Notes under the pieces: model-generated
Databases searched by the model: none
The model's input: only the letters and a program-made list of their open reading frames with translations
What the model was told of the DNA's origin: nothing
Part shown: positions 1,466 through 11,667 of the stretch, piece by piece
How positions within the stretch are numbered: position 1 is the stretch's first letter
Layout of the letters: each line of letters starts with the position of its first letter
Made by a program: the position numbers and the translations under genes
NCBI GenBank assembly: GCA_019057375.1
Contig: DXJF01000097.1
Span: 48,101 to 72,100 of the forward strand
DNA from: Candidatus Heimdallarchaeota archaeon
GTDB taxonomy: Archaea > Asgardarchaeota > Heimdallarchaeia > Heimdallarchaeales > Heimdallarchaeaceae
Direction of reading: 5' to 3'
DNA length: 24,000 nt

Positions 1466-1507
1466 TGGTGCGGGGAGGGAGATTCGAACTCCCGAACCAC
1501 TAAGGAA
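1466..1507 (-). repeat. tRNA-Leu(UAA) 3'-end fragment (CCA, acceptor 3' strand, T-arm, variable arm); distal att-like direct repeat
   Basis: tggtgcggggagggagattcgaactcccga is identical over the first 30 nt to 6073-6102 of the intact tRNA gene. The next 12 nt (accactaaggaa vs actactaaagaa) have 2 mismatches. Similarity then degrades at about 1508. Confidence 0.85.
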
Positions 1508-1525
1508 AGGTGTTTTTTTATCGTG

Positions 1526-1533
1526 TTTAAATA
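1526..1533 (+). promoter_or_regulatory. Possible archaeal TATA box for a leaderless TnpB-like transcript
   Basis: tttaaata is centred about 26 nt upstream of the first ATG (1556) of the ORF, which is the spacing expected for archaeal TATA-to-TSS and a leaderless mRNA. AT-rich background makes this weak. Confidence 0.25.
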
Positions 1534-1555
1534 TCAAATTACAGATATAAAAGTG

Positions 1556-3481
1556 ATGAATTCTGTGCTTGTAAAAGATCTCGAAGAAGAAAAGGAAGTT
1601 CAAAAAACCTATTCCTTAGTTCTTAGATTTCAAAATCTAGCACAAAGAAAAGAAGCTAACCATCGAGTCAGCGATTTAGAAGATAAACAATCACTATTAC
1701 TATATGATACTTCTACTCAAAAAATTGCAAGAGATTTAGCTCGCGAAAATCCAAATGTTTCATTTCCTATTTCTAAAATCCAAAAATCTTCGAGGAGCAG
1801 TTCAAATATCTCTTTCAGTGCTTATAATTGGTTGTTTGCAGCATCAAAAGTGTCTGTTGATAAGGAAAAGAAAGTAGCTGATTTATTCCAGTTTCTGTTA
1901 CAAAATCCACAGCAAGCAATTGAATGGGTGATTCTTGGACGTTCTCCCTATACTGAAATTTCTCTTTCGAAGAAATGGAGAGTAGATTATGTATATGTTA
2001 TAAATCTCTTGACAAGTACTAGACGAAAAACTAACACTTATTGGAAAAAGAATTTTACTATGAGCTTTAAAGAAAAGCAACTAGAGTTCAATTCAAAGCT
2101 TCCAAAGACAACACAATTTGAAGTTGAACAAGCAATACAAGACTGCTATGAAGTAAAGGTAGAAGAGTATGCAAAATTGAAGAAAACTACTGAAAAACAA
2201 TATACTTTTCTTGATAAATTAGCTTTGGTAGTGAAACATAAGTATGTTATAGCTCCATATGTAACTTCTTGGATTAATCTTTCTCAAAAAGCTCGGTGGA
2301 AAAGCTTAAAGCAACTGAGTAAACAACTTGCTGAAACGATTGGTCAAATCAATGAAAAACTCCATTCTACAATAAGATTGATAGTAGTTTTTGCACTCTT
2401 CTCAAAACTGTGGGGGACTGTATCTAAATTAATTGATTCAACTAATCCAGAAGAAGTTGTAAGTTCTCCGTTTGAAAGAAAAAAAGCGAATTTACCAATT
2501 AAAATGTTAATGAAACATGAATATGACATAATTCGACCTGGTAACTCTCAAAAGATGACACAACTTGCTAAAGAACAAGGATGCTTTGAACTTGGATTTC
2601 CATGTAAAGGAAAAAAAAGAATAACAGGTAATCTTCTGTTTACAGAAAAAATTATCGAATATCTGAAAAATGGTGCTAGTGTAAGAATCTTACAAATTAA
2701 AAGTGGAAAAGCTCCTAACTACAAACCCAAGATTTCAGTTGTTCTTCATGGTACTCCTAGCATGTTTGTGAGCACCAAACTAGCACAAAAATATGCTAAC
2801 AGTATGAATCTCACTGCTGCTAATATCTTAGGGCTAGATGTCAATAGAGTAGGAAAACACATGTTGTCGTTCTCTAATGAAGTTCCATTGGATTCTAGAT
2901 TGAGATCTTTATCAAACCATTACCTCTCCTTAACAAGAAAAGAAATTCCAAGATTGAGTAACTCACTAAAAACTAAAGGTAAGCAAAAAGATAGTTATGG
3001 TTATATTAAAACAAAGGGTGAGCTAAATAGGATATATAACAAAAGAACTAATATAATTAAGGAAATTAAGAGAATAATACCACATTACATTGCGGGAGTT
3101 ATTATCAAGAGTAAGTGTAAATTTTTTTGTATAGAAGAGTTTCGTAAGAATCCAAGAGGGAAAAGAGGTGCATTAGCAAAAGCAATATACAACATGCCTT
3201 ACGAAGACAATATTTTTGAAAAAGCAGTCCAGATTGCGACTCACATTCTTAGTTATAAAGTGAAACTTGTATATGTAAGTGCTCGTAACACAAGTAAATA
3301 TCATTATAGTTGTAGAGGTGTGATTCAAAGAGATCTTAAAAATTATGATTATGCTCTCTGTAAAAAATGTGGTGAACGAGTAAATACACATATTAATGCT
3401 GCTAAAAACATTGCGAAGAAAGGAGAAACAATAATAAAGCAAATCAAGCTTCCCCTAGACGCCGCTAAGGGGACGGGGTAA
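1556..3481 (+). CDS. Large TnpB/Cas12-like RuvC-fold protein (putative RNA-guided effector) with a non-canonical RuvC-III motif
   Basis: ORF track 1523..3481 starts at a GTG; the first ATG is 1556. The C-terminal core contains ILGLDVN (RuvC-I), FFCIEEF (RuvC-II), ARNTSKYHYSC...CKKCG (zinc finger) and NTHINAAKNI (RuvC-III signature xxDxNAAxNI, with His in place of Asp). About 430 aa precede RuvC-I. Confidence 0.75.
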   Translation: MNSVLVKDLEEEKEVQKTYSLVLRFQNLAQRKEANHRVSDLEDKQSLLLYDTSTQKIARDLARENPNVSFPISKIQKSSRSSSNISFSAYNWLFAASKVSVDKEKKVADLFQFLLQNPQQAIEWVILGRSPYTEISLSKKWRVDYVYVINLLTSTRRKTNTYWKKNFTMSFKEKQLEFNSKLPKTTQFEVEQAIQDCYEVKVEEYAKLKKTTEKQYTFLDKLALVVKHKYVIAPYVTSWINLSQKARWKSLKQLSKQLAETIGQINEKLHSTIRLIVVFALFSKLWGTVSKLIDSTNPEEVVSSPFERKKANLPIKMLMKHEYDIIRPGNSQKMTQLAKEQGCFELGFPCKGKKRITGNLLFTEKIIEYLKNGASVRILQIKSGKAPNYKPKISVVLHGTPSMFVSTKLAQKYANSMNLTAANILGLDVNRVGKHMLSFSNEVPLDSRLRSLSNHYLSLTRKEIPRLSNSLKTKGKQKDSYGYIKTKGELNRIYNKRTNIIKEIKRIIPHYIAGVIIKSKCKFFCIEEFRKNPRGKRGALAKAIYNMPYEDNIFEKAVQIATHILSYKVKLVYVSARNTSKYHYSCRGVIQRDLKNYDYALCKKCGERVNTHINAAKNIAKKGETIIKQIKLPLDAAKGTG

Positions 3482-3546
3482 ATAAACCCCTCAAGTAAAC
3501 CTAAAGTTTCTACGAGAACCTAGTAAACTTCATTACGTGCGTGGAA
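3440..3546 (+). ncRNA. Candidate omega-RNA/reRNA-like scaffold overlapping the 3' end of the TnpB-like ORF
   Basis: Four G4/C4 tracts lie within 40 nt in an AT-rich context. Hairpin 1 is cccctag(3452-3458)/ctaagggg(3465-3472). Hairpin 2 is gggg(3475-3478)/cccc(3487-3490) and spans the stop codon (3479-3481). The position is analogous to TnpB omega-RNAs. There is no expression evidence. Confidence 0.2.
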
Positions 3547-3558
3547 CGGATGACTTAT
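3543..3558 (-). repeat. Short tRNA-Leu-derived fragment (anticodon-stem 3' strand plus intron start)
   Basis: ggaacggatgacttat compared with copy 2 ggaacggatttcttat (3649-3664) gives 14/16 matches, including a 9-nt exact core. Confidence 0.5.
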
Positions 3559-3610
3559 TATTTTAATAAATAATAGTTAGCTTAGATAAGAAAAATAGAT
3601 TTGAAAAAAT

Positions 3611-3714
3611 TGGTGCGGAGAGGGAGATTCGAACTCCCGAACTACAAAGGAACGGATTTCTTATCTATTCTCTAACCCTTATCTTAGGTTTAAAACTAAG
3701 ATCTTAAGTCCACC
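3611..3714 (-). repeat. Truncated tRNA-Leu(UAA) copy (3' exon, intron, anticodon loop and 5' anticodon-stem strand; no D-arm or 5' acceptor); att-like direct repeat
   Basis: It aligns column by column with 6073-6176 of the intact gene. The exon part has about 3 mismatches in 47 nt. The intron part has about 10 mismatches plus a 1-nt indel in 44 nt. It diverges completely after tcc(a/g)cc. The acceptor 3' strand is mutated (TCTCCGC). Confidence 0.85.
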
Positions 3715-3760
3715 TTGAAACATAAAAGTATTAAAGGTTTAAAAGACAAAATAGGATTAA

Positions 3761-4639
3761 ATGTCTAGTAAAAATTGGGACACTGTAATAGAGTTACTAG
3801 AAACAATCACGCCCTCATATTACTTAGAAAAGGAGCTTAAAGCTACATTCAAATCTAATCTCCAATATAGAATAGGAAAATACTCTGAGAATTGTCGATA
3901 TTTCTTTCAGGAAGGTTTCGAAAAAAAATATTCAAATATTATTCCATCAGCAATAATTGTACCAAGGAAGTCAGGAACTAATATAAGCAAAATCGCAAAT
4001 GAAGCTGTTATATATTTTAAACAAAGCTTGGAATTGTTTAAAACATTGGATAACGTTGAAGAAAATGTGAGTCCATTATTGGAATATTATGGATTATTAC
4101 AATGTGTTAAGGGAGTAGTAATTTTAGAATTAGATGTGAAAAGTGACAAGATATTTAGTAAGCATGGTTTAACTCAAGAAACAAGATTTCATTCAAAAAT
4201 AGATGAACCAAAATCAACAAAAAAATATAAACTAAAAATGATTAAGAGAATTAAGCCATCAAAATATATCAACGCTAAAATTATGCCTTATGGTGTTTTA
4301 ACATCTTTAATCATTCGTTTCACAGATCATTATGATGAACTTTATTCTGACAGAGACATATACAAAATAAGTAAGCATTCTATGGATAAATACGTAACAG
4401 GATACTATAGACCTTCATTAGAAGAAATAACAACCAATCATCATGTAGATCCAATAATTGCTTTCATAGGTTCTTGGATGTTATCAACATTGGTAAGATA
4501 TAAAGCAAAAATGTGGCAAGAAATATGTTTGGGAGAAAAAGATGACATAATAAATAATATTAGAAAATTTAGGAGGGAAAAAATACCTAAAGCAGTAGAA
4601 ACTATGCTAATGGATTATGTAAGAAAGAGCTCTTGGTAA
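3761..4639 (+). CDS. YaaC-like protein (uncharacterised family)
   Basis: 292 aa. The blocks KYSENCRYFFQEG, SPLLEYYGLLQCVKGVVIL, SKHGL and LSTLVRYKAKMWQEI parallel, in the same order, the blocks I recall from B. subtilis YaaC (NCYRFLYYLEHG, PVLLFYGLSQLIKACLL, AHGV, ICRYETEWWSEL). The comparison is from memory. Confidence 0.5.
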   Translation: MSSKNWDTVIELLETITPSYYLEKELKATFKSNLQYRIGKYSENCRYFFQEGFEKKYSNIIPSAIIVPRKSGTNISKIANEAVIYFKQSLELFKTLDNVEENVSPLLEYYGLLQCVKGVVILELDVKSDKIFSKHGLTQETRFHSKIDEPKSTKKYKLKMIKRIKPSKYINAKIMPYGVLTSLIIRFTDHYDELYSDRDIYKISKHSMDKYVTGYYRPSLEEITTNHHVDPIIAFIGSWMLSTLVRYKAKMWQEICLGEKDDIINNIRKFRREKIPKAVETMLMDYVRKSSW

Positions 4640-4721
4640 CAGCTTAAAGAGTATTCATAAGTACTACAAAAGCTTAAAAAATAATGAATGAAAAAGGAAG
4701 GAGAGAAAGGAGGGGAGACAA

Positions 4722-6065
4722 GTGCAAGAGGATAATAGCGAAAATTTAGCTGAGCCAATAGGAATTAAAGAATTAGGAAAGAGAATAATTCTTCTCCCTT
4801 ATCACATTATAAGGCTCATAGTAAATAATGTTTTACTATTTATTTTAGGAAGTATAGAAAATGGAGTAATAATTGTAAGAGCAAAAAAAAGTATCAAGAT
4901 TGAAGAAGGAATAAAAAAACTCATACAGGAAAACGAATGTATTCTAAGAAAAAGTATCTACTTAAAGAAAAACGATAGTATAGACGAGATTAAACCAGAA
5001 GAGGAAGAAGAGCAAGAAGTAAAACGAATAAATGTTTTGAATAGAATAATGGCTATAGTAGTAATTTCAATAGTTTGGTCGTTTCAAATTGTGTTGAGAG
5101 TCATAGTTTGGATATTTATCTTGATTAATTGTTTAACCATTAGAAAGAAAGTAGGTTTAAAGGAGTGGGAAGAGAATAATTTGGGATATTACAGAGAAAC
5201 CATAAAATATCTTACAGGTATTAGTGAAGAAATACCTTTTTGGAAAGAATTAGGTGGTTGGGGCGAAGGTTTATTATTTATATTAGTATTTGATTTGGTT
5301 GTTATTAGGAATGGATTCTTAAGATTGTGTAGGATAATTCTTGGAGATACTTACAGTTATTATTTGATTATTTCGTTAGTATATATCATAATTTTCGTAA
5401 TTCTTATACCAAAATATCTGAAGTTTCCAAGTAAAAGTGGGGAAAGGAAAACTAAGCAAATAGTAAGAAGAATAGGAGTAAAAAAACCAAAAAGTATAGC
5501 AAGGACTCTCTTAATTGTGATTCTACTATTAGCAATTAAATTAGGAATTATTTATGGAATATCCTTGCTAATAGATTATAATGTAGAAAATTTTATTTTC
5601 CCAGTAAATACAGGTTATATAATTGCAGTAAGTATGAGTGCAGGTATTGCTGAAGAAATAATATACAGGGGATATGTAATAGAAGTAACAAAAAGAAAAT
5701 ATGGAACTTTAGTAACTATGATAATTTCAGGGTGTCTTTTTGGACTTGCACATTTTGCGCTTAATCCATCCATTTATAGTTTTGTTCAGATGTTGTTCGT
5801 AACCTTTATAGGAATAACATATGCGTATTTCAGAATTCTATCAGATTCATTGATAGGACCAATAGTCATGCACACAATATATGACATAATTGTACTATCA
5901 GTAGTATATACAACAGAAAAAATACCTGATTATGTCGTGTATTTGATAGCAATTACATTGAGTATTATAATAACAATAATTTCAATTAATTTGCTGAAAC
6001 TAATATACAAAGACAAAGAACTATTGATATTTAAGAAAAGAGGGAAAGAACAGAAGGAAGGATAA
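4722..6065 (+). CDS. Polytopic membrane protein with a C-terminal CPBP (CAAX protease / bacteriocin-processing, Abi) intramembrane metalloprotease domain
   Basis: 447 aa with a GTG start preceded by the purine-rich aggaggggag. There are many hydrophobic segments. The three CPBP motifs occur in order: AEEIIYRGY (EExxxR), LFGLAHF (FxxxH) and MHTIYD (HxxxD/N). Confidence 0.7.
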   Translation: MQEDNSENLAEPIGIKELGKRIILLPYHIIRLIVNNVLLFILGSIENGVIIVRAKKSIKIEEGIKKLIQENECILRKSIYLKKNDSIDEIKPEEEEEQEVKRINVLNRIMAIVVISIVWSFQIVLRVIVWIFILINCLTIRKKVGLKEWEENNLGYYRETIKYLTGISEEIPFWKELGGWGEGLLFILVFDLVVIRNGFLRLCRIILGDTYSYYLIISLVYIIIFVILIPKYLKFPSKSGERKTKQIVRRIGVKKPKSIARTLLIVILLLAIKLGIIYGISLLIDYNVENFIFPVNTGYIIAVSMSAGIAEEIIYRGYVIEVTKRKYGTLVTMIISGCLFGLAHFALNPSIYSFVQMLFVTFIGITYAYFRILSDSLIGPIVMHTIYDIIVLSVVYTTEKIPDYVVYLIAITLSIIITIISINLLKLIYKDKELLIFKKRGKEQKEG

Positions 6066-6072
6066 AGGAAAA

Positions 6073-6201
6073 TGGTGCGGGGAGGGAGATTCGAACTCCC
6101 GAACTACTAAAGAACGGATGGCTCATCTGACTTCTAACCCTTATCTTAGGCATAAACCAAGATCTTAAGTCCGCCGCCGTTGGCCACTTGGCTATCCCCG
6201 C
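6073..6201 (-). tRNA. tRNA-Leu(UAA), class II, with a 44-nt intron at the canonical 37/38 position and encoded CCA
   Basis: Hand-folded. Acceptor GCGGGGA/TCCCCGC; D-stem GCC/GGC with an 11-nt loop; anticodon stem GCGGA/TCCGT; loop CT-TAA-G[intron 6120-6163]A; 13-nt variable region; T-arm GGGAG-TTCGAAT-CTCCC; discriminator A; CCA at 6075-6073. Confidence 0.85.
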
Positions 6202-7744: not shown

Positions 7745-8434
7745 ATGAAGAAGATTGTACTAAAGTTTGGTGGTTCTGTTTTATACAAAGAAGAAATGGT
7801 TCTAAATGTTGAGAGAATAAAGGAAATTGTTGAAACCATTAACACCCTCCATGATGCAGGGCATAAAGTTGCTGTGGTTGTTGGAGGAGGAAAATTAGCG
7901 AGAGTTATCATTCAAGCAAGCGATGTCCTTGGACATGTATCTACTTTCAAAGACATTCTTGCAGTGGAATCAACTCGAATTCATGCTTTGCTAGTAATTG
8001 CTTCACTCCAAAATAAAGCATATTTGCTTGTTCCTCGTTCATTCGAAGAAATTGGTAAAGCACTCTCGACTGGAAAGATTGTTGTTACTGGAGGTCTTCA
8101 ACCAGGGCAATCTACAAATGCTGTTGCAGCTCTTGTAGCAGAATACTGGGGCGCTGATTTACTGATAAATTTGACAAATGTAGATAAGGTCTATGATAAA
8201 GATCCCAACCTGTTTGAAGATGCTAAACCTTTAGATGAACTTTCAGCGGATGAACTGTTGGAGATTATATCAAAACAAGATGAAGAACCAGGTAAATATG
8301 CCCTCTTTGACAGAGTAGGATGTGAAATAGTGAAAAGATCCAATTTAAGACTAATATTTACAAATGGTTCTGATCCTAAGAACATTTTGAGAATTGTTGA
8401 TGGAGAAAATATTGGAACTGTAGTTAATGGATAA
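7745..8434 (+). CDS. pyrH: Uridylate (UMP) kinase, archaeal type
   Basis: 229 aa. Amino-acid-kinase fold signatures LKFGGS and VAVVVGGGKLAR, followed by VVTGGLQPGQSTNAVAAL. Confidence 0.85.
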   Translation: MKKIVLKFGGSVLYKEEMVLNVERIKEIVETINTLHDAGHKVAVVVGGGKLARVIIQASDVLGHVSTFKDILAVESTRIHALLVIASLQNKAYLLVPRSFEEIGKALSTGKIVVTGGLQPGQSTNAVAALVAEYWGADLLINLTNVDKVYDKDPNLFEDAKPLDELSADELLEIISKQDEEPGKYALFDRVGCEIVKRSNLRLIFTNGSDPKNILRIVDGENIGTVVNG

Positions 8435-8449: not shown

Positions 8450-9721
8450 CTAATAACTATCATATGTTTTGTATCGGAGAATTGCTGCTATCCCACCAAA
8501 TGCATTGTATAACATAGCCCCATCCTCATGATCGGATGAAATGACCTCTAGTGTGGCACCAGTATTCTCGGCTTTTTCATTCAATTCAGTTATTAAATCA
8601 CTTTCACTTTCAATATACAATTTGGAATTTCCGCAATCAGGACATTTTTTATCAGATAATTTTTTTACGAAATCATTGTAATCTTTGCTTTTTACCGACT
8701 CAATGGTTGAGTAATCACACCCATCACATCTAATTTCCATATTAATTCTATCTACATCCTCACTTACTAAAACAATATCAACAGCTGCTTTTTCTAATGC
8801 TTCCAAAACTTCCTTTTCTCCATAAGTAACTAGTCCTGTGTCTTTTCCCAAATGTTCCATGAATTTTTGTGTGAGTTGGCGCTCCTTAACTAACTCAAAA
8901 TCAGACAATTTATCTGCAGCTTTATCTAGAAGTTCTCGAATCCCTACTGAGCCCAAATATCCAATATCATAGATTCCTATGACTTTTTCAAGCAATCGAT
9001 AATCAATTTCCTTACTTTCCAAAAATTCTGCTTTTGATAAAGCTGGACCACCAACAACTATTGCTTCAACAGGATAATCTTCAAGATAAACAGTATTCAT
9101 GATATCTGCAATTTTGCCATACCATCTTTGAGCCGCTTCTTCAGTTAATCTTTGAAAACGAGCTTGAGACTGACCACCCATTTTATGTTTACCAGGAACA
9201 TTAGATTCTTCTTCACGAATTATATCTAATCGGGAGCCTTGAACAGTTGCTAGTGTTGCTCCTCCTCGAGCAATTAATGCTAACCCATACCTTTGTTTGC
9301 TTTCTAACATCTCTTTAAGATGATCAATATGAAATACATAATCACAGAGATAGAGCTTAATTCCTACGGGATCTGGAGGGCTAATTAGGAAAAACTCCAC
9401 CTTATTGTTTTGAGTAATTCCACAGAAGATAACAAGACCATTTACTCCAGAATCAGGAATAGTTTTTATCCTAGACATGATAGAGGAAAGCGCAGATTGG
9501 ACAGCTTTTCCAGTGCTTTTGTCTTTAATATTTGTTGCAGTTCCGTATTCATCACGCAACTGGGCATTAACATCAGATAACCTAGTACCGGGAGGAATAT
9601 ATAGGGTAACTAAACTTGTAGACATGTTAAAACTTTTTTTGGACTCTAATTTGTCTATTTCATGTTTTAACATATAACGTTCTACTGATGTTCTTTTCTT
9701 TTCTTCCTGTTTCTTTGTCAT
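8450..9721 (-). CDS. prf1: Peptide chain release factor aRF1
   Basis: 423 aa. GGQSQARF (GGQ), TATNIKD (NIKS-like), YLCDYVF (YxCxxxF), and a CDGC...CPDC zinc-ribbon-like insert in the C-terminal domain. Confidence 0.9.
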   Translation of the reverse strand: MTKKQEEKKRTSVERYMLKHEIDKLESKKSFNMSTSLVTLYIPPGTRLSDVNAQLRDEYGTATNIKDKSTGKAVQSALSSIMSRIKTIPDSGVNGLVIFCGITQNNKVEFFLISPPDPVGIKLYLCDYVFHIDHLKEMLESKQRYGLALIARGGATLATVQGSRLDIIREEESNVPGKHKMGGQSQARFQRLTEEAAQRWYGKIADIMNTVYLEDYPVEAIVVGGPALSKAEFLESKEIDYRLLEKVIGIYDIGYLGSVGIRELLDKAADKLSDFELVKERQLTQKFMEHLGKDTGLVTYGEKEVLEALEKAAVDIVLVSEDVDRINMEIRCDGCDYSTIESVKSKDYNDFVKKLSDKKCPDCGNSKLYIESESDLITELNEKAENTGATLEVISSDHEDGAMLYNAFGGIAAILRYKTYDSY

Positions 9722-11557: not shown

Positions 11558-11667
11558 TGGTGGGGCATAGCAGATTTGAACTGCCGACCCCCCGGTTTTT
11601 GAGTTAAATGCTTAACAAACAAATAACATATCAGCCGAGTGCTCTAACCAAGCTGAGCTAATGCCCC
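11558..11667 (-). tRNA. tRNA-Ile(GAU) with a 32-nt intron at 37/38 and encoded CCA
   Basis: Hand-folded. Acceptor GGGGCAT/ATGCCCC; D-arm GCTC-AGCTTGGTTA-GAGC; anticodon stem CTCGG/CCGGG (one G.U); loop CT-GAT-A[intron 11597-11628]A; variable GGGTC; T-arm GGCAG-TTCAAAT-CTGCT; discriminator A; CCA at 11560-11558. Confidence 0.85.

Follow-up and report, generated by a model that had tools for sequence, protein, structure and literature searches.

The DNA analyzed here (the window) is a stretch of 24,000 nucleotides (nt) from Candidatus Heimdallarchaeota archaeon (GenBank assembly GCA_019057375.1, contig DXJF01000097.1, positions 48,101 to 72,100 of the forward strand). In it, a gene for a TnpB-like protein lies inside a former tRNA-Leu(UAA) gene, and three copies of tRNA-Leu sequence form a direct-repeat family around it (1462 to 1549, 3607 to 3694, and 6069 to 6156; Table 1). 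An original prediction, made from the sequence alone, held that a GC-rich double hairpin across the stop codon of the TnpB-like gene belongs to the scaffold of an omega-RNA, the guide RNA of TnpB systems, and that the guide following it is derived from the tRNA gene. Homolog scans recovered 79 loci from the genomes of Heimdallarchaeota and other Asgard archaea and another 35 from metagenomes, and covariation across about 60 homologous Heimdallarchaeota loci supported an omega-RNA scaffold over the 3′ end of the gene followed by a tRNA-derived guide.

The product of the gene is a distant member of the TnpB/Cas12 family, an assignment on which its sequence and its predicted fold agree. The 641-residue product matched Pfam PF07282 just above the cutoff (27.6 versus 26.3 bits), and the NCBIfam model guided_TnpB aligned with residues 388 to 622 (E = 6e-7; 29 bits, below the cutoff of 100). 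A profile built from 16 homologs matched TnpB and Cas12f in the PDB (E = 1e-7), and PADLOC returned a Cas12f match to the window protein (E = 5e-10). An AlphaFold2 (AF2) model of the protein (predicted local distance difference test [pLDDT] score of 84) had the bilobed WED-REC-RuvC fold of the superfamily, with a large helical REC insertion at about residues 28 to 300, and its best Foldseek matches were to Cas12f, Cas12h, Cas12k, Fanzor2, and TnpB (probability of 1.0, E values down to 4e-9). RuvC motifs I and II are intact (D428 in LGLDVNR and the E in CIEEF). The third position is a His (NTHINAAKNI; VNTHxNAAxNI in the family) that falls on the Asp of 8hr5, 9nzq, and LaTranC, and the family as a whole carries D-E-H instead of the D-E-D catalytic triad. 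A TnpB branch with the same D-to-H change has been reported and was suggested to be still active (PMC10691335). We note that the third RuvC site corresponds to residues ~583 to 590 of the window protein (nt ~3385 to 3410), that one family member (P0007/L084) has a Gln there, and that the first zinc-ribbon CxxC has become HxxC.

To the 3′ side of the catalytic region, the double hairpin of the original prediction was confirmed as hairpins P1 (3452 to 3455 with 3469 to 3472) and P2 (3475 to 3478 with 3487 to 3490). The sequence runs t3451, CCCC (3452 to 3455), tagacgccgcta, a, GGGG (3469 to 3472), ac, GGGG (3475 to 3478), taaataaa, CCCC (3487 to 3490); the stop codon TAA (3479 to 3481) sits between the GGGG and CCCC strands of P2, and the hairpins thus span the end of the open reading frame (ORF). 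Both belong to a longer conserved stretch, the last ~95 nt before a common end in about 60 non-identical loci. A covariance model of this stretch matched the window once (3448 to 3542), gave one match at the tnpB 3′ end in each of 58 loci, and found nothing in empty sites. Within P1, which has the family form CCCCT(CA)/(TG)AGGGG, CG-to-UA double changes were seen at two pairs. In the family, moreover, the 7-nt loop of P1 pairs with the last 7 nt before the common end to form a pseudoknot, which in the window comprises 6 bp and one bulge. Compensatory changes were found at six of the seven pseudoknot pairs, as in the variants ACGCACG/CGTGCGT, ACACACG/CGTGTGT, ATGCACG/CGTGCAT, ACGCTCG/CGAGCGT, ACGCATG/CATGCGT, and CGCATAC/GTATGCG. 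Taken together, P1 and the pseudoknot were paired in 92% of cells (54 loci) with double changes at 10 of 15 pairs; none of 500 shuffles reached the observed values, and slid controls were 36 to 55% paired.

Covariation, which the original prediction had named as a check, extended to the remaining helices. P2 was formed in 14 of 14 members of the subclade of tRNA-linked loci to which the window belongs, from differing sequences and with three to five double changes per pair, and the base helix of P3 switches between clades from AAAC/GTTT to AAGC/GCTT (14 double changes). The position of the stop codon shifts among homologs and the underlying nucleotides stay conserved, indicating that the encoded tail (PLDAAKGTG) is incidental, as had been suspected. 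Folding energy was not significantly better than that of dinucleotide shuffles (z = -1.05 for 3380 to 3640 and z = -0.91 for 3448 to 3562) and is therefore not used as support; the case for the RNA rests on the comparison of loci. In a scan of Rfam 15, no family matched the scaffold (E ≤ 1) or described an RNA over 3440 to 3635, and matches to plastid untranslated regions at 3616 to 3658 were rejected as spurious, as they reflect the tRNA T arm.

The common end of the conserved stretch was sharp. Information content was 1 to 2 bits per position up to ...TTCATAACGTGCGT (position -1) and ~0.1 bit from position +1, and conservation stopped abruptly past ...ACGTGCGT, which places the right end of the window element at 3542. 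Two right ends had been offered originally, and the drop in information and the end of the pseudoknot 3′ strand both fall at the first of these, from which the guide starts with GGAACGGATGACTTAT. The anatomy is that of a TnpB omega-RNA: a conserved structured RNA covers the last part of tnpB, stops at the element's right end, and has flank-derived sequence behind it as its guide. We conclude that 3448 to 3542 is very probably an omega-RNA scaffold with its right end at 3542, to judge from the aligned loci. An omega-RNA with a flank-derived guide is a known principle; this specific scaffold matches no Rfam family.

The homologs fell into a main clade and the tRNA-linked subclade, and genomes carried up to seven or more tnpB copies. 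The main clade is multicopy and of the IS607 type: a serine-recombinase TnpA (MerR-like N terminus, GVSASTLRRWEKEEK; C terminus ending ...LVEDMIALVTSFAGRLHRQRRGK) is encoded directly 5′ of tnpB, the left end is conserved ((A)C(C/T)GT...CAACTGAAGAGTAAAAACTTACCCAATCTTGCC), and the flanks past the right end are unrelated and carry no information. In the subclade, TnpA and the left end are missing, tRNA genes adjoin, and the DNA just past the right end is a piece of the adjoining tRNA gene. Such modules were found at tRNA-Leu(UAA) (the window, L001, and L005/L006), tRNA-Cys(GCA) (11 loci), tRNA-Pro(UGG) (L025 and L092, with L089 holding the same module on a contig that ends before the tRNA), tRNA-Asn(GUU) (L008, L011, L023, L024, and L075), tRNA-Ser(GCU) (L007, with L083 having the same tRNA-Ser-like flank and its tRNA side off the contig), and tRNA-Val(CAC) (L003). 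The same architecture occurs at the same tRNA position in genomes just 55 to 62% identical and with six different tRNAs.

In the window itself, TnpA is absent and the tRNA remnant directly abuts the tnpB promoter; a (c/t)cgNgTTTAAATA motif 5′ of tnpB is kept in nearly all loci. An nhmmer profile of 34 IS607 left ends gave no significant match in the window or in any tRNA-linked locus, and a resemblance to the left end seen by eye at 1430 to 1465 was rejected on that basis. Nor was an integrase or recombinase found by Pfam among all ORFs between the repeats and the neighboring ORFs in four loci.

With the right end at 3542, the guide begins with a 16-mer (3543 to 3558) that reads antisense to tRNA-Leu, from the end of the variable arm through the 3′ strand of the anticodon stem and into the intron at its 3′ end. 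The tRNA-Leu-derived sequence reported 3′ of the hairpins is real, both in this 16-mer and in the partial copy at 3610 to 3715. Orthologous loci were retrieved by way of the neighboring bactofilin-like gene (402 to 1307), and the occupancy of the tRNA did not follow host relatedness. In L147/L148 (86% bactofilin identity), L151 (61%), and L152 (57%), the genes for AsxRS, tRNA-Leu(UAA), and bactofilin follow one another with nothing inserted; L005/L006 (55 to 57%) carry the tnpB module at the same tRNA-Leu position, and L146 (94%) carries unrelated cargo at the same tRNA-Leu. We conclude that integrase-less cassettes have inserted serially at this tRNA-Leu, making it a hot spot. The L146 cargo comprises SBP_bac_5, an AsnC-type helix-turn-helix (HTH) protein, an E1-E2 ATPase, and a SHOCT protein, and both tRNA remnants of that locus likewise stop within the variable arm.

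Alignment with the uninterrupted tRNA-Leu gene of L147 (antisense, TGGTGCGGGGAGGGAGATTCGAACTCCCGAACCACTAAGGAACGGATGACTTATCTAACCC...) placed window positions 1466 to 1507 on tRNA positions 1 to 42 and window positions 3543 to 3558 on tRNA positions 39 to 54 (16/16), with the four bases GGAA shared by the two junctions of the module. The region to the left of the remnant (1330 to 1465) aligned at ~75% with the 3′ flank of the L147 tRNA-Leu gene. From the 42-nt match and this flank alignment we conclude that 1466 to 1507 (antisense when read along the plus strand) is the original gene's own 3′ end, displaced through insertion, that the module lies inside the former gene, and that the guide is the continuation of the remnant. 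The copy at 3610 to 3715, whose distal part resembles the naive L147 allele, is a former functional tRNA-Leu gene that was truncated by the next insertion, and the copy at 6073 to 6201 is the present functional gene. Against that resident gene (6111 to 6126, with the counterpart sequence AGAACGGATGGCTCAT) the guide matched at only 13 of 16 positions, and against the truncated copy at 14 of 16; the resident mismatches fall on a variable-arm position and on the 3′ end of the intron, where these genes vary most. A perfect match to the empty-site allele and an imperfect one to the resident tRNA suggest that the guide is addressed to the uninterrupted tRNA-Leu allele. The claim that the effector is aimed at the tRNA-Leu locus thus stands for the uninterrupted allele of a sister genome and falls for the resident gene. 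We conclude that the guide probably matches the unoccupied tRNA-Leu allele. In the empty-site tRNA-Leu of L151, a run of 10 N (~8780 to 8800) covers exactly the guide-homologous stretch, and this allele is therefore outside the comparison. A TTTCT intron variant was considered as a mark of module-bearing tRNAs and rejected, as the naive L152 allele has TTTCT too.

Table 1. Features of the window at the tnpB-like gene and the tRNA-Leu copies
Feature	Position	Strand	Basis or remark
Native 3′ end of original tRNA-Leu(UAA)	1466-1507	-	Acceptor 3′ strand, T arm, variable arm; 42/42 identical to uninterrupted gene of L147
Left junction and tnpB promoter region	1508-1555	+	TATA-like TTTAAATA at 1526-1533; without IS607 left-end motif
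tnpB-like gene, 641 aa	1556-3481	+	Pfam, NCBIfam, PDB profile, AF2/Foldseek
Omega-RNA-like scaffold	3448-3542	+	Covariance model 75 bits, E = 2e-17; 3′ limit is the right end; 5′ limit undefined
Hairpin P1	3451-3473	+	T3451-CCCC-T3456 with A3468-GGGG-A3473; 93.5% of cells paired in 54 loci
Pseudoknot 5′ strand (P1 loop, ACGCCG)	3459-3464	+	Pairs with 3536-3542, T3538 bulged
Hairpin P2 (GGGG/CCCC)	3475-3490	+	Contains stop codon; tRNA-linked subclade only
P3 region	3493-3530	+	Base helix A3493-T3496 with A3527-T3530, enclosing a hairpin
Conserved 3′ tail CATTACGTGCGT	3531-3542	+	Pseudoknot 3′ strand; marks right end
Predicted guide, GGAACGGATGACTTAT (16 nt) plus TATT	3543-3562	+	Antisense to tRNA-Leu; 16-mer at 3543-3558
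AT-rich spacer between guide and next tRNA copy	3563-3609		Unalignable between homologous loci; identity ~0.3, background
Partial tRNA-Leu copy 2 (3′ end to 5′ strand of anticodon stem)	3610-3715	-	86% identical to 6073-6178
Intact tRNA-Leu(UAA) with 44-nt intron and encoded CCA	6073-6201	-	Rfam tRNA, 44 bits; ARAGORN with introns, tRNA-Leu (taa) i(39,44)

Conservation of the flank in the subclade had the length of a guide. At flank positions 1 to 20, identity was 0.87 and 0.57 in the Leu group and 0.72 and 0.78 in the Cys group (n = 10), and from position 21 on it was at a background of ~0.3 in both. Conservation of positions 1 to 20 only points to a fixed guide of about 16 to 20 nt. Guides of 16 to 20 nt are the rule in characterized TnpBs. 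The imperfect match to the resident tRNA was not peculiar to the window: the guides of L001 and L006 matched their own tRNAs at 15 and 14 of 20 positions and alleles of other genomes at 18 and 17 of 20. Among 13 Leu and Cys modules that could be aligned with their own tRNAs, none was perfect, and the 12 alignments over the whole guide showed at least three mismatches. In the Cys group this held for nine of the 10 aligned guides (two by way of a 2-nt indel), the tenth, that of L074, aligning only in part (12 nt, two mismatches). The empty-site tRNA-Cys D arm, CGCATGGCCGCTTTGCTAAC, has at most two mismatches to several guides (L041, L047, and L053), and about 20% of cross-genome pairs in the Cys group reach 16 or more matches.

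The point of the tRNA at which the guide begins could be read in two further groups. In the Pro group (L025, 4772 to 4790), it begins exactly at the intron/exon boundary of the tRNA (position 37/38), and in the Val locus (L003, 6990 to 7030), it begins between anticodon-loop nucleotides 36 and 37. The region of tRNA positions 37/38 and 36/37 is the classical site of archaeal introns and of element integration.

The Cys group allowed modules to be compared along with their surroundings. The loci are syntenic, and TnpB identity (56 to 85%) tracks that of neighboring proteins (53 to 87%), a pattern that argues for long residence under purifying selection. One genome, L154, lacks the module even though its MBL-fold neighbor is 89% identical to that of module-bearing L012, and the more distant L155 lacks it as well. 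The acceptor stem, the T arm, and the anticodon stem of the tRNA-Cys gene are very different in L012 and L154, and the gene of L154 is identical to the one in the more distant L020. This suggests that the tRNA-Cys gene was replaced along with gain or loss of the module.

Two features expected of homing were found, namely, that the guide has the sequence of an unoccupied allele (L147, 16/16) and that occupancy is polymorphic. We propose that the sequence at 3448 to 3562 specifies the omega-RNA of a TnpB of IS607 origin, from whose element the transposase and the left end have been lost. The RNA-protein complex would recognize, and probably cut, unoccupied or restored tRNA-Leu alleles, as in TnpB homing, and repair off the occupied chromosome would copy the module together with the adjoining, non-matching tRNA copy, which would keep the cell viable. 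With the conserved tRNA exons as homology arms, a recombinase would not be needed. We assign a probability of about 0.55 to the statement as a whole, i.e., the omega-RNA of a transposase-less IS607-derived TnpB with a guide against unoccupied tRNA-Leu that serves homing or retention. That homing is active is a more tentative proposition, which by analogy with known systems we place somewhat below even odds. A broader version is rather doubtful: that this Asgard TnpB lineage consists of transposase-free RNA-guided homing cassettes for tRNA genes (Leu, Cys, Pro, Asn, Ser, and Val) that use a fixed guide of 16 to 20 nt, cut alleles lacking the module, are copied by repair through the tRNA exons, and carry along an unmatched tRNA copy.

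Several observations weigh against this proposal. The His in place of Asp at the third RuvC position leaves nuclease activity unproven. The inner hairpin of P3 has a folding energy of -0.9 kcal/mol in the window, compared with -6 to -10 kcal/mol in relatives (-9 kcal/mol in the closest ones), and the window copy may therefore be decaying. Divergence of TnpB in step with neighboring genes in the Cys group looks more like long vertical residence than active spread. Also in that group, matches of guides to their own tRNA (9 to 15 of 18) did not differ significantly from cross-genome matches (p about 0.13), and we therefore do not claim that guides avoid their own tRNA. No target-adjacent motif (TAM) could be derived, as the 34 left-end flanks showed just an invariant A at -1 that is perhaps the element's own. 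The AAGGAA beside the window target resembles the bacterial IS607 TAM AGGAG (PMC11061315), which we take as a lead only. Finally, the tRNA-like flank ends after 16 nt and does not run on into the rest of the native tRNA, such that a plain insertion is insufficient and an earlier rearrangement or propagation as a cassette is needed. Single-crossover integration of an element with guide, spacer, and a 42-nt tRNA attP was tested and rejected: the left remnant is just 42 nt long, whereas the differences between copy 2 and the native allele reach to position ~61. Either a previous insertion had left behind the tRNA fragment that the module entered, or the whole composite spreads as one unit.

The proposed homing cassette shares features with several known systems. 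IS607-family TnpBs with their reRNA/omega-RNA, such as that of ISFba1 (PMC11061315), in whose solved complexes a pseudoknot lies next to the guide, resemble it in several ways: the MerR-HTH serine-recombinase TnpA encoded upstream of tnpB is found in the closest relatives of the window copy, and here, too, the scaffold overlaps the 3′ end of tnpB, has a pseudoknot, and ends at the right end, with the flank as the guide. The window protein differs in its size (about 640 versus about 390 amino acids), large helical insertion, and RuvC-III His, and the window copy differs in lacking TnpA and the left end and in having a fixed, tRNA-derived guide. With IS200/IS605 homing (ISDra2; PMC8612924; bioRxiv 10.1101/2023.11.20.567912) the logic is shared, in that the guide represents the unoccupied site and repair proceeds from the occupied copy, but in the present case there is no transposase to generate empty sites, the gene targeted encodes an essential tRNA, and a second, non-matching tRNA copy lies 50 nt downstream. 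Archaeal tRNA-integrating elements (attP with a partial tRNA; Heimdallarchaeum, PMC8813620) likewise use a tRNA site, leave flanking partial copies and a regenerated functional gene, and undergo serial insertions with variable cargo, as at L146 and in a second cassette of the window. In the case described here, however, no integrase was found in or near the module, and a guide-length tRNA segment stands behind an RNA scaffold. Intron homing endonucleases and IStrons (PMC4227781; PMC13565253) also set a selfish nuclease against the allele that lacks it and preserve host gene function; recognition here would be RNA guided, with a duplicate tRNA segment instead of splicing. No description of TnpB modules with fixed tRNA-gene-derived guides was found in the searchable literature, in which the TldRs are the nearest concept.

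Usual TnpB guide RNAs are by-products of transposon position, whereas this subclade keeps a fixed guide from an essential tRNA gene, and it keeps an intact nuclease-like gene and a covarying scaffold despite the loss of the transposase. If the complex is active, the cassettes would be a natural example, from the closest archaeal relatives of eukaryotes, of elements that spread to or persist at a specific site by RNA guidance and need no recombinase. Variation in the 3′ end of the tRNA intron and in the D loop could then be read as escape from RNA-guided cutting, which would give a concrete selective reason for the diversity of archaeal tRNA introns and alleles. The modules bear on the persistence of TnpB after loss of TnpA, on tRNA genes as insertion hot spots, and on archaeal tRNA intron variation, and with a predicted RNA of ~95 nt plus a guide of 16 to 20 nt and with matching and non-matching natural targets they offer a compact, testable system.

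The main rival to an omega-RNA that serves homing is a domesticated, TldR-like RNA-guided DNA binder, immobile, retained by the host, and binding through a fixed guide without cutting. We consider it unlikely. Its role could be regulation or, at the same low probability, the guarding of the tRNA hot spot against elements that carry foreign tRNA-Leu attachment sequences. The lack of TnpA and of a left end speaks for such a binder, as does the conservation of a 20-nt guide beside a spacer that is not conserved. The syntenic Cys modules, in which TnpB identity tracks that of the neighbors, also fit; the presence of the Leu module, however, is sporadic among relatives. A change of the catalytic Asp to His would suit binding without cutting, but tRNA-linked copies share an identical D-E-H triad with multicopy IS607 relatives that are clearly mobile, and the triad is thus not a sign of domestication. 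The guides match neither the resident tRNA gene nor a promoter, having at least three mismatches, often in the TAM-proximal half. Guarding would agree with the differing cargo found at the tRNA-Leu hot spot in close relatives, but when viral contigs were searched for exact matches to the window guide (15-mer) and to the consensus of the Cys guides (18-mer), only chance-level 15-mer matches and generic phage tRNA D arms came up. The TldR nuclease-dead repressors themselves (PMC10705468) are likewise transposase free and fixed at a locus, with a guide that is conserved and related to a neighboring gene. The window family differs from them in keeping the catalytic D and E, in having a His common to mobile relatives, and in being archaeal, and the window guide is imperfect against the neighboring gene and not targeted to a promoter.

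An inert relic is improbable. On this account, an IS607-type tnpB landed by chance in a leftover tRNA-Leu fragment at the hot spot, and its RNA is functionless. The tRNA remnants of other insertions in L146 end at the same variable-arm position, and the tRNA-like flank in the window stops after 16 nt in the manner of a remnant end; chance, however, sits poorly with the recurrence of the architecture at one tRNA position across distant genomes and six tRNAs. A module without a transposase and with a degraded P3 hairpin could be a relic, but P1, P2, and the pseudoknot are intact in the window, and the ORF has kept all 641 codons and every family-invariant residue. Moreover, the 20-nt flank is kept throughout the 10-member Cys group, with adjacent sequence at background.

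It is very improbable that the guide acts on the tRNA-Leu transcript, as an antisense RNA to the 3′ splice junction of the pre-tRNA that modulates or cuts RNA. Although the guide has complementarity to pre-tRNA-Leu where the intron meets the 3′ exon, the resident pre-tRNA is matched at 13 of 16 positions only, and characterized TnpB enzymes act on DNA (PMC8612924, PMC11061315). In the Asn sister group, furthermore, the flank is partly in the same sense as the tRNA, such that antisense pairing cannot be a general rule and the suggestion that the effector is aimed at the tRNA itself is unlikely to hold. Last, an element extending to 3610 with the guide TGGTGCGGAGAGGGAGATTCG, the second of the originally offered right ends, and a mere terminator or stabilizer of the tnpB mRNA can both be dismissed as almost certainly wrong: a tRNA 3′-end copy does begin at 3610 and the hairpins do sit at the stop codon, but conservation ends at 3542, 3610 is the start of a later partial tRNA copy, 3563 to 3609 is unalignable from locus to locus, neither P1 nor P2 is followed by a T-run, and the P1 loop pairs and covaries with the tail at 3536 to 3542, which a terminator would not need.

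A second cassette, of ~2.4 kb (3716 to 6072), lies within the same tRNA-Leu gene of the window. It encodes a YaaC-like protein (3761 to 4639) and a CPBP/Rce1-type intramembrane protease with a DUF4389 domain (4722 to 6065), is bordered by 105-nt tRNA-Leu direct repeats (3610 to 3715 and 6073 to 6178; 86% identical), and contains neither an integrase nor a PADLOC match. ARAGORN found no tRNA in the window in its default mode, and its intron-aware mode was required. Another intron-containing tRNA, a tRNA-Phe(GAA) by ARAGORN (Rfam, 52 bits), is located at 11558 to 11667 on the minus strand, with neither a TnpB scaffold nor a tRNA remnant nearby.

Elsewhere in the family, L032 has an extra scaffold match (7778 to 7863) on the opposite strand ~2 kb downstream of tnpB, probably a second copy of the element or a solo right end. 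In L002 (6997 to 7020), a member of the IS607 clade, the right-end flank TTTGGAATGACTTATTC shares the 10-mer ATGACTTATT with the window guide; the 10-mer coincides with the start codon of the next ORF, and the sharing is probably due to chance. In the intergenic stretch of the window that separates the bactofilin-like gene from the tRNA 3′ end (1330 to 1465), three GGTTAAAC(C/G) motifs are conserved between genomes (the window, L006, and L147). The same octamer also forms the P3 stem of the IS607-clade scaffold, which may be a coincidence.

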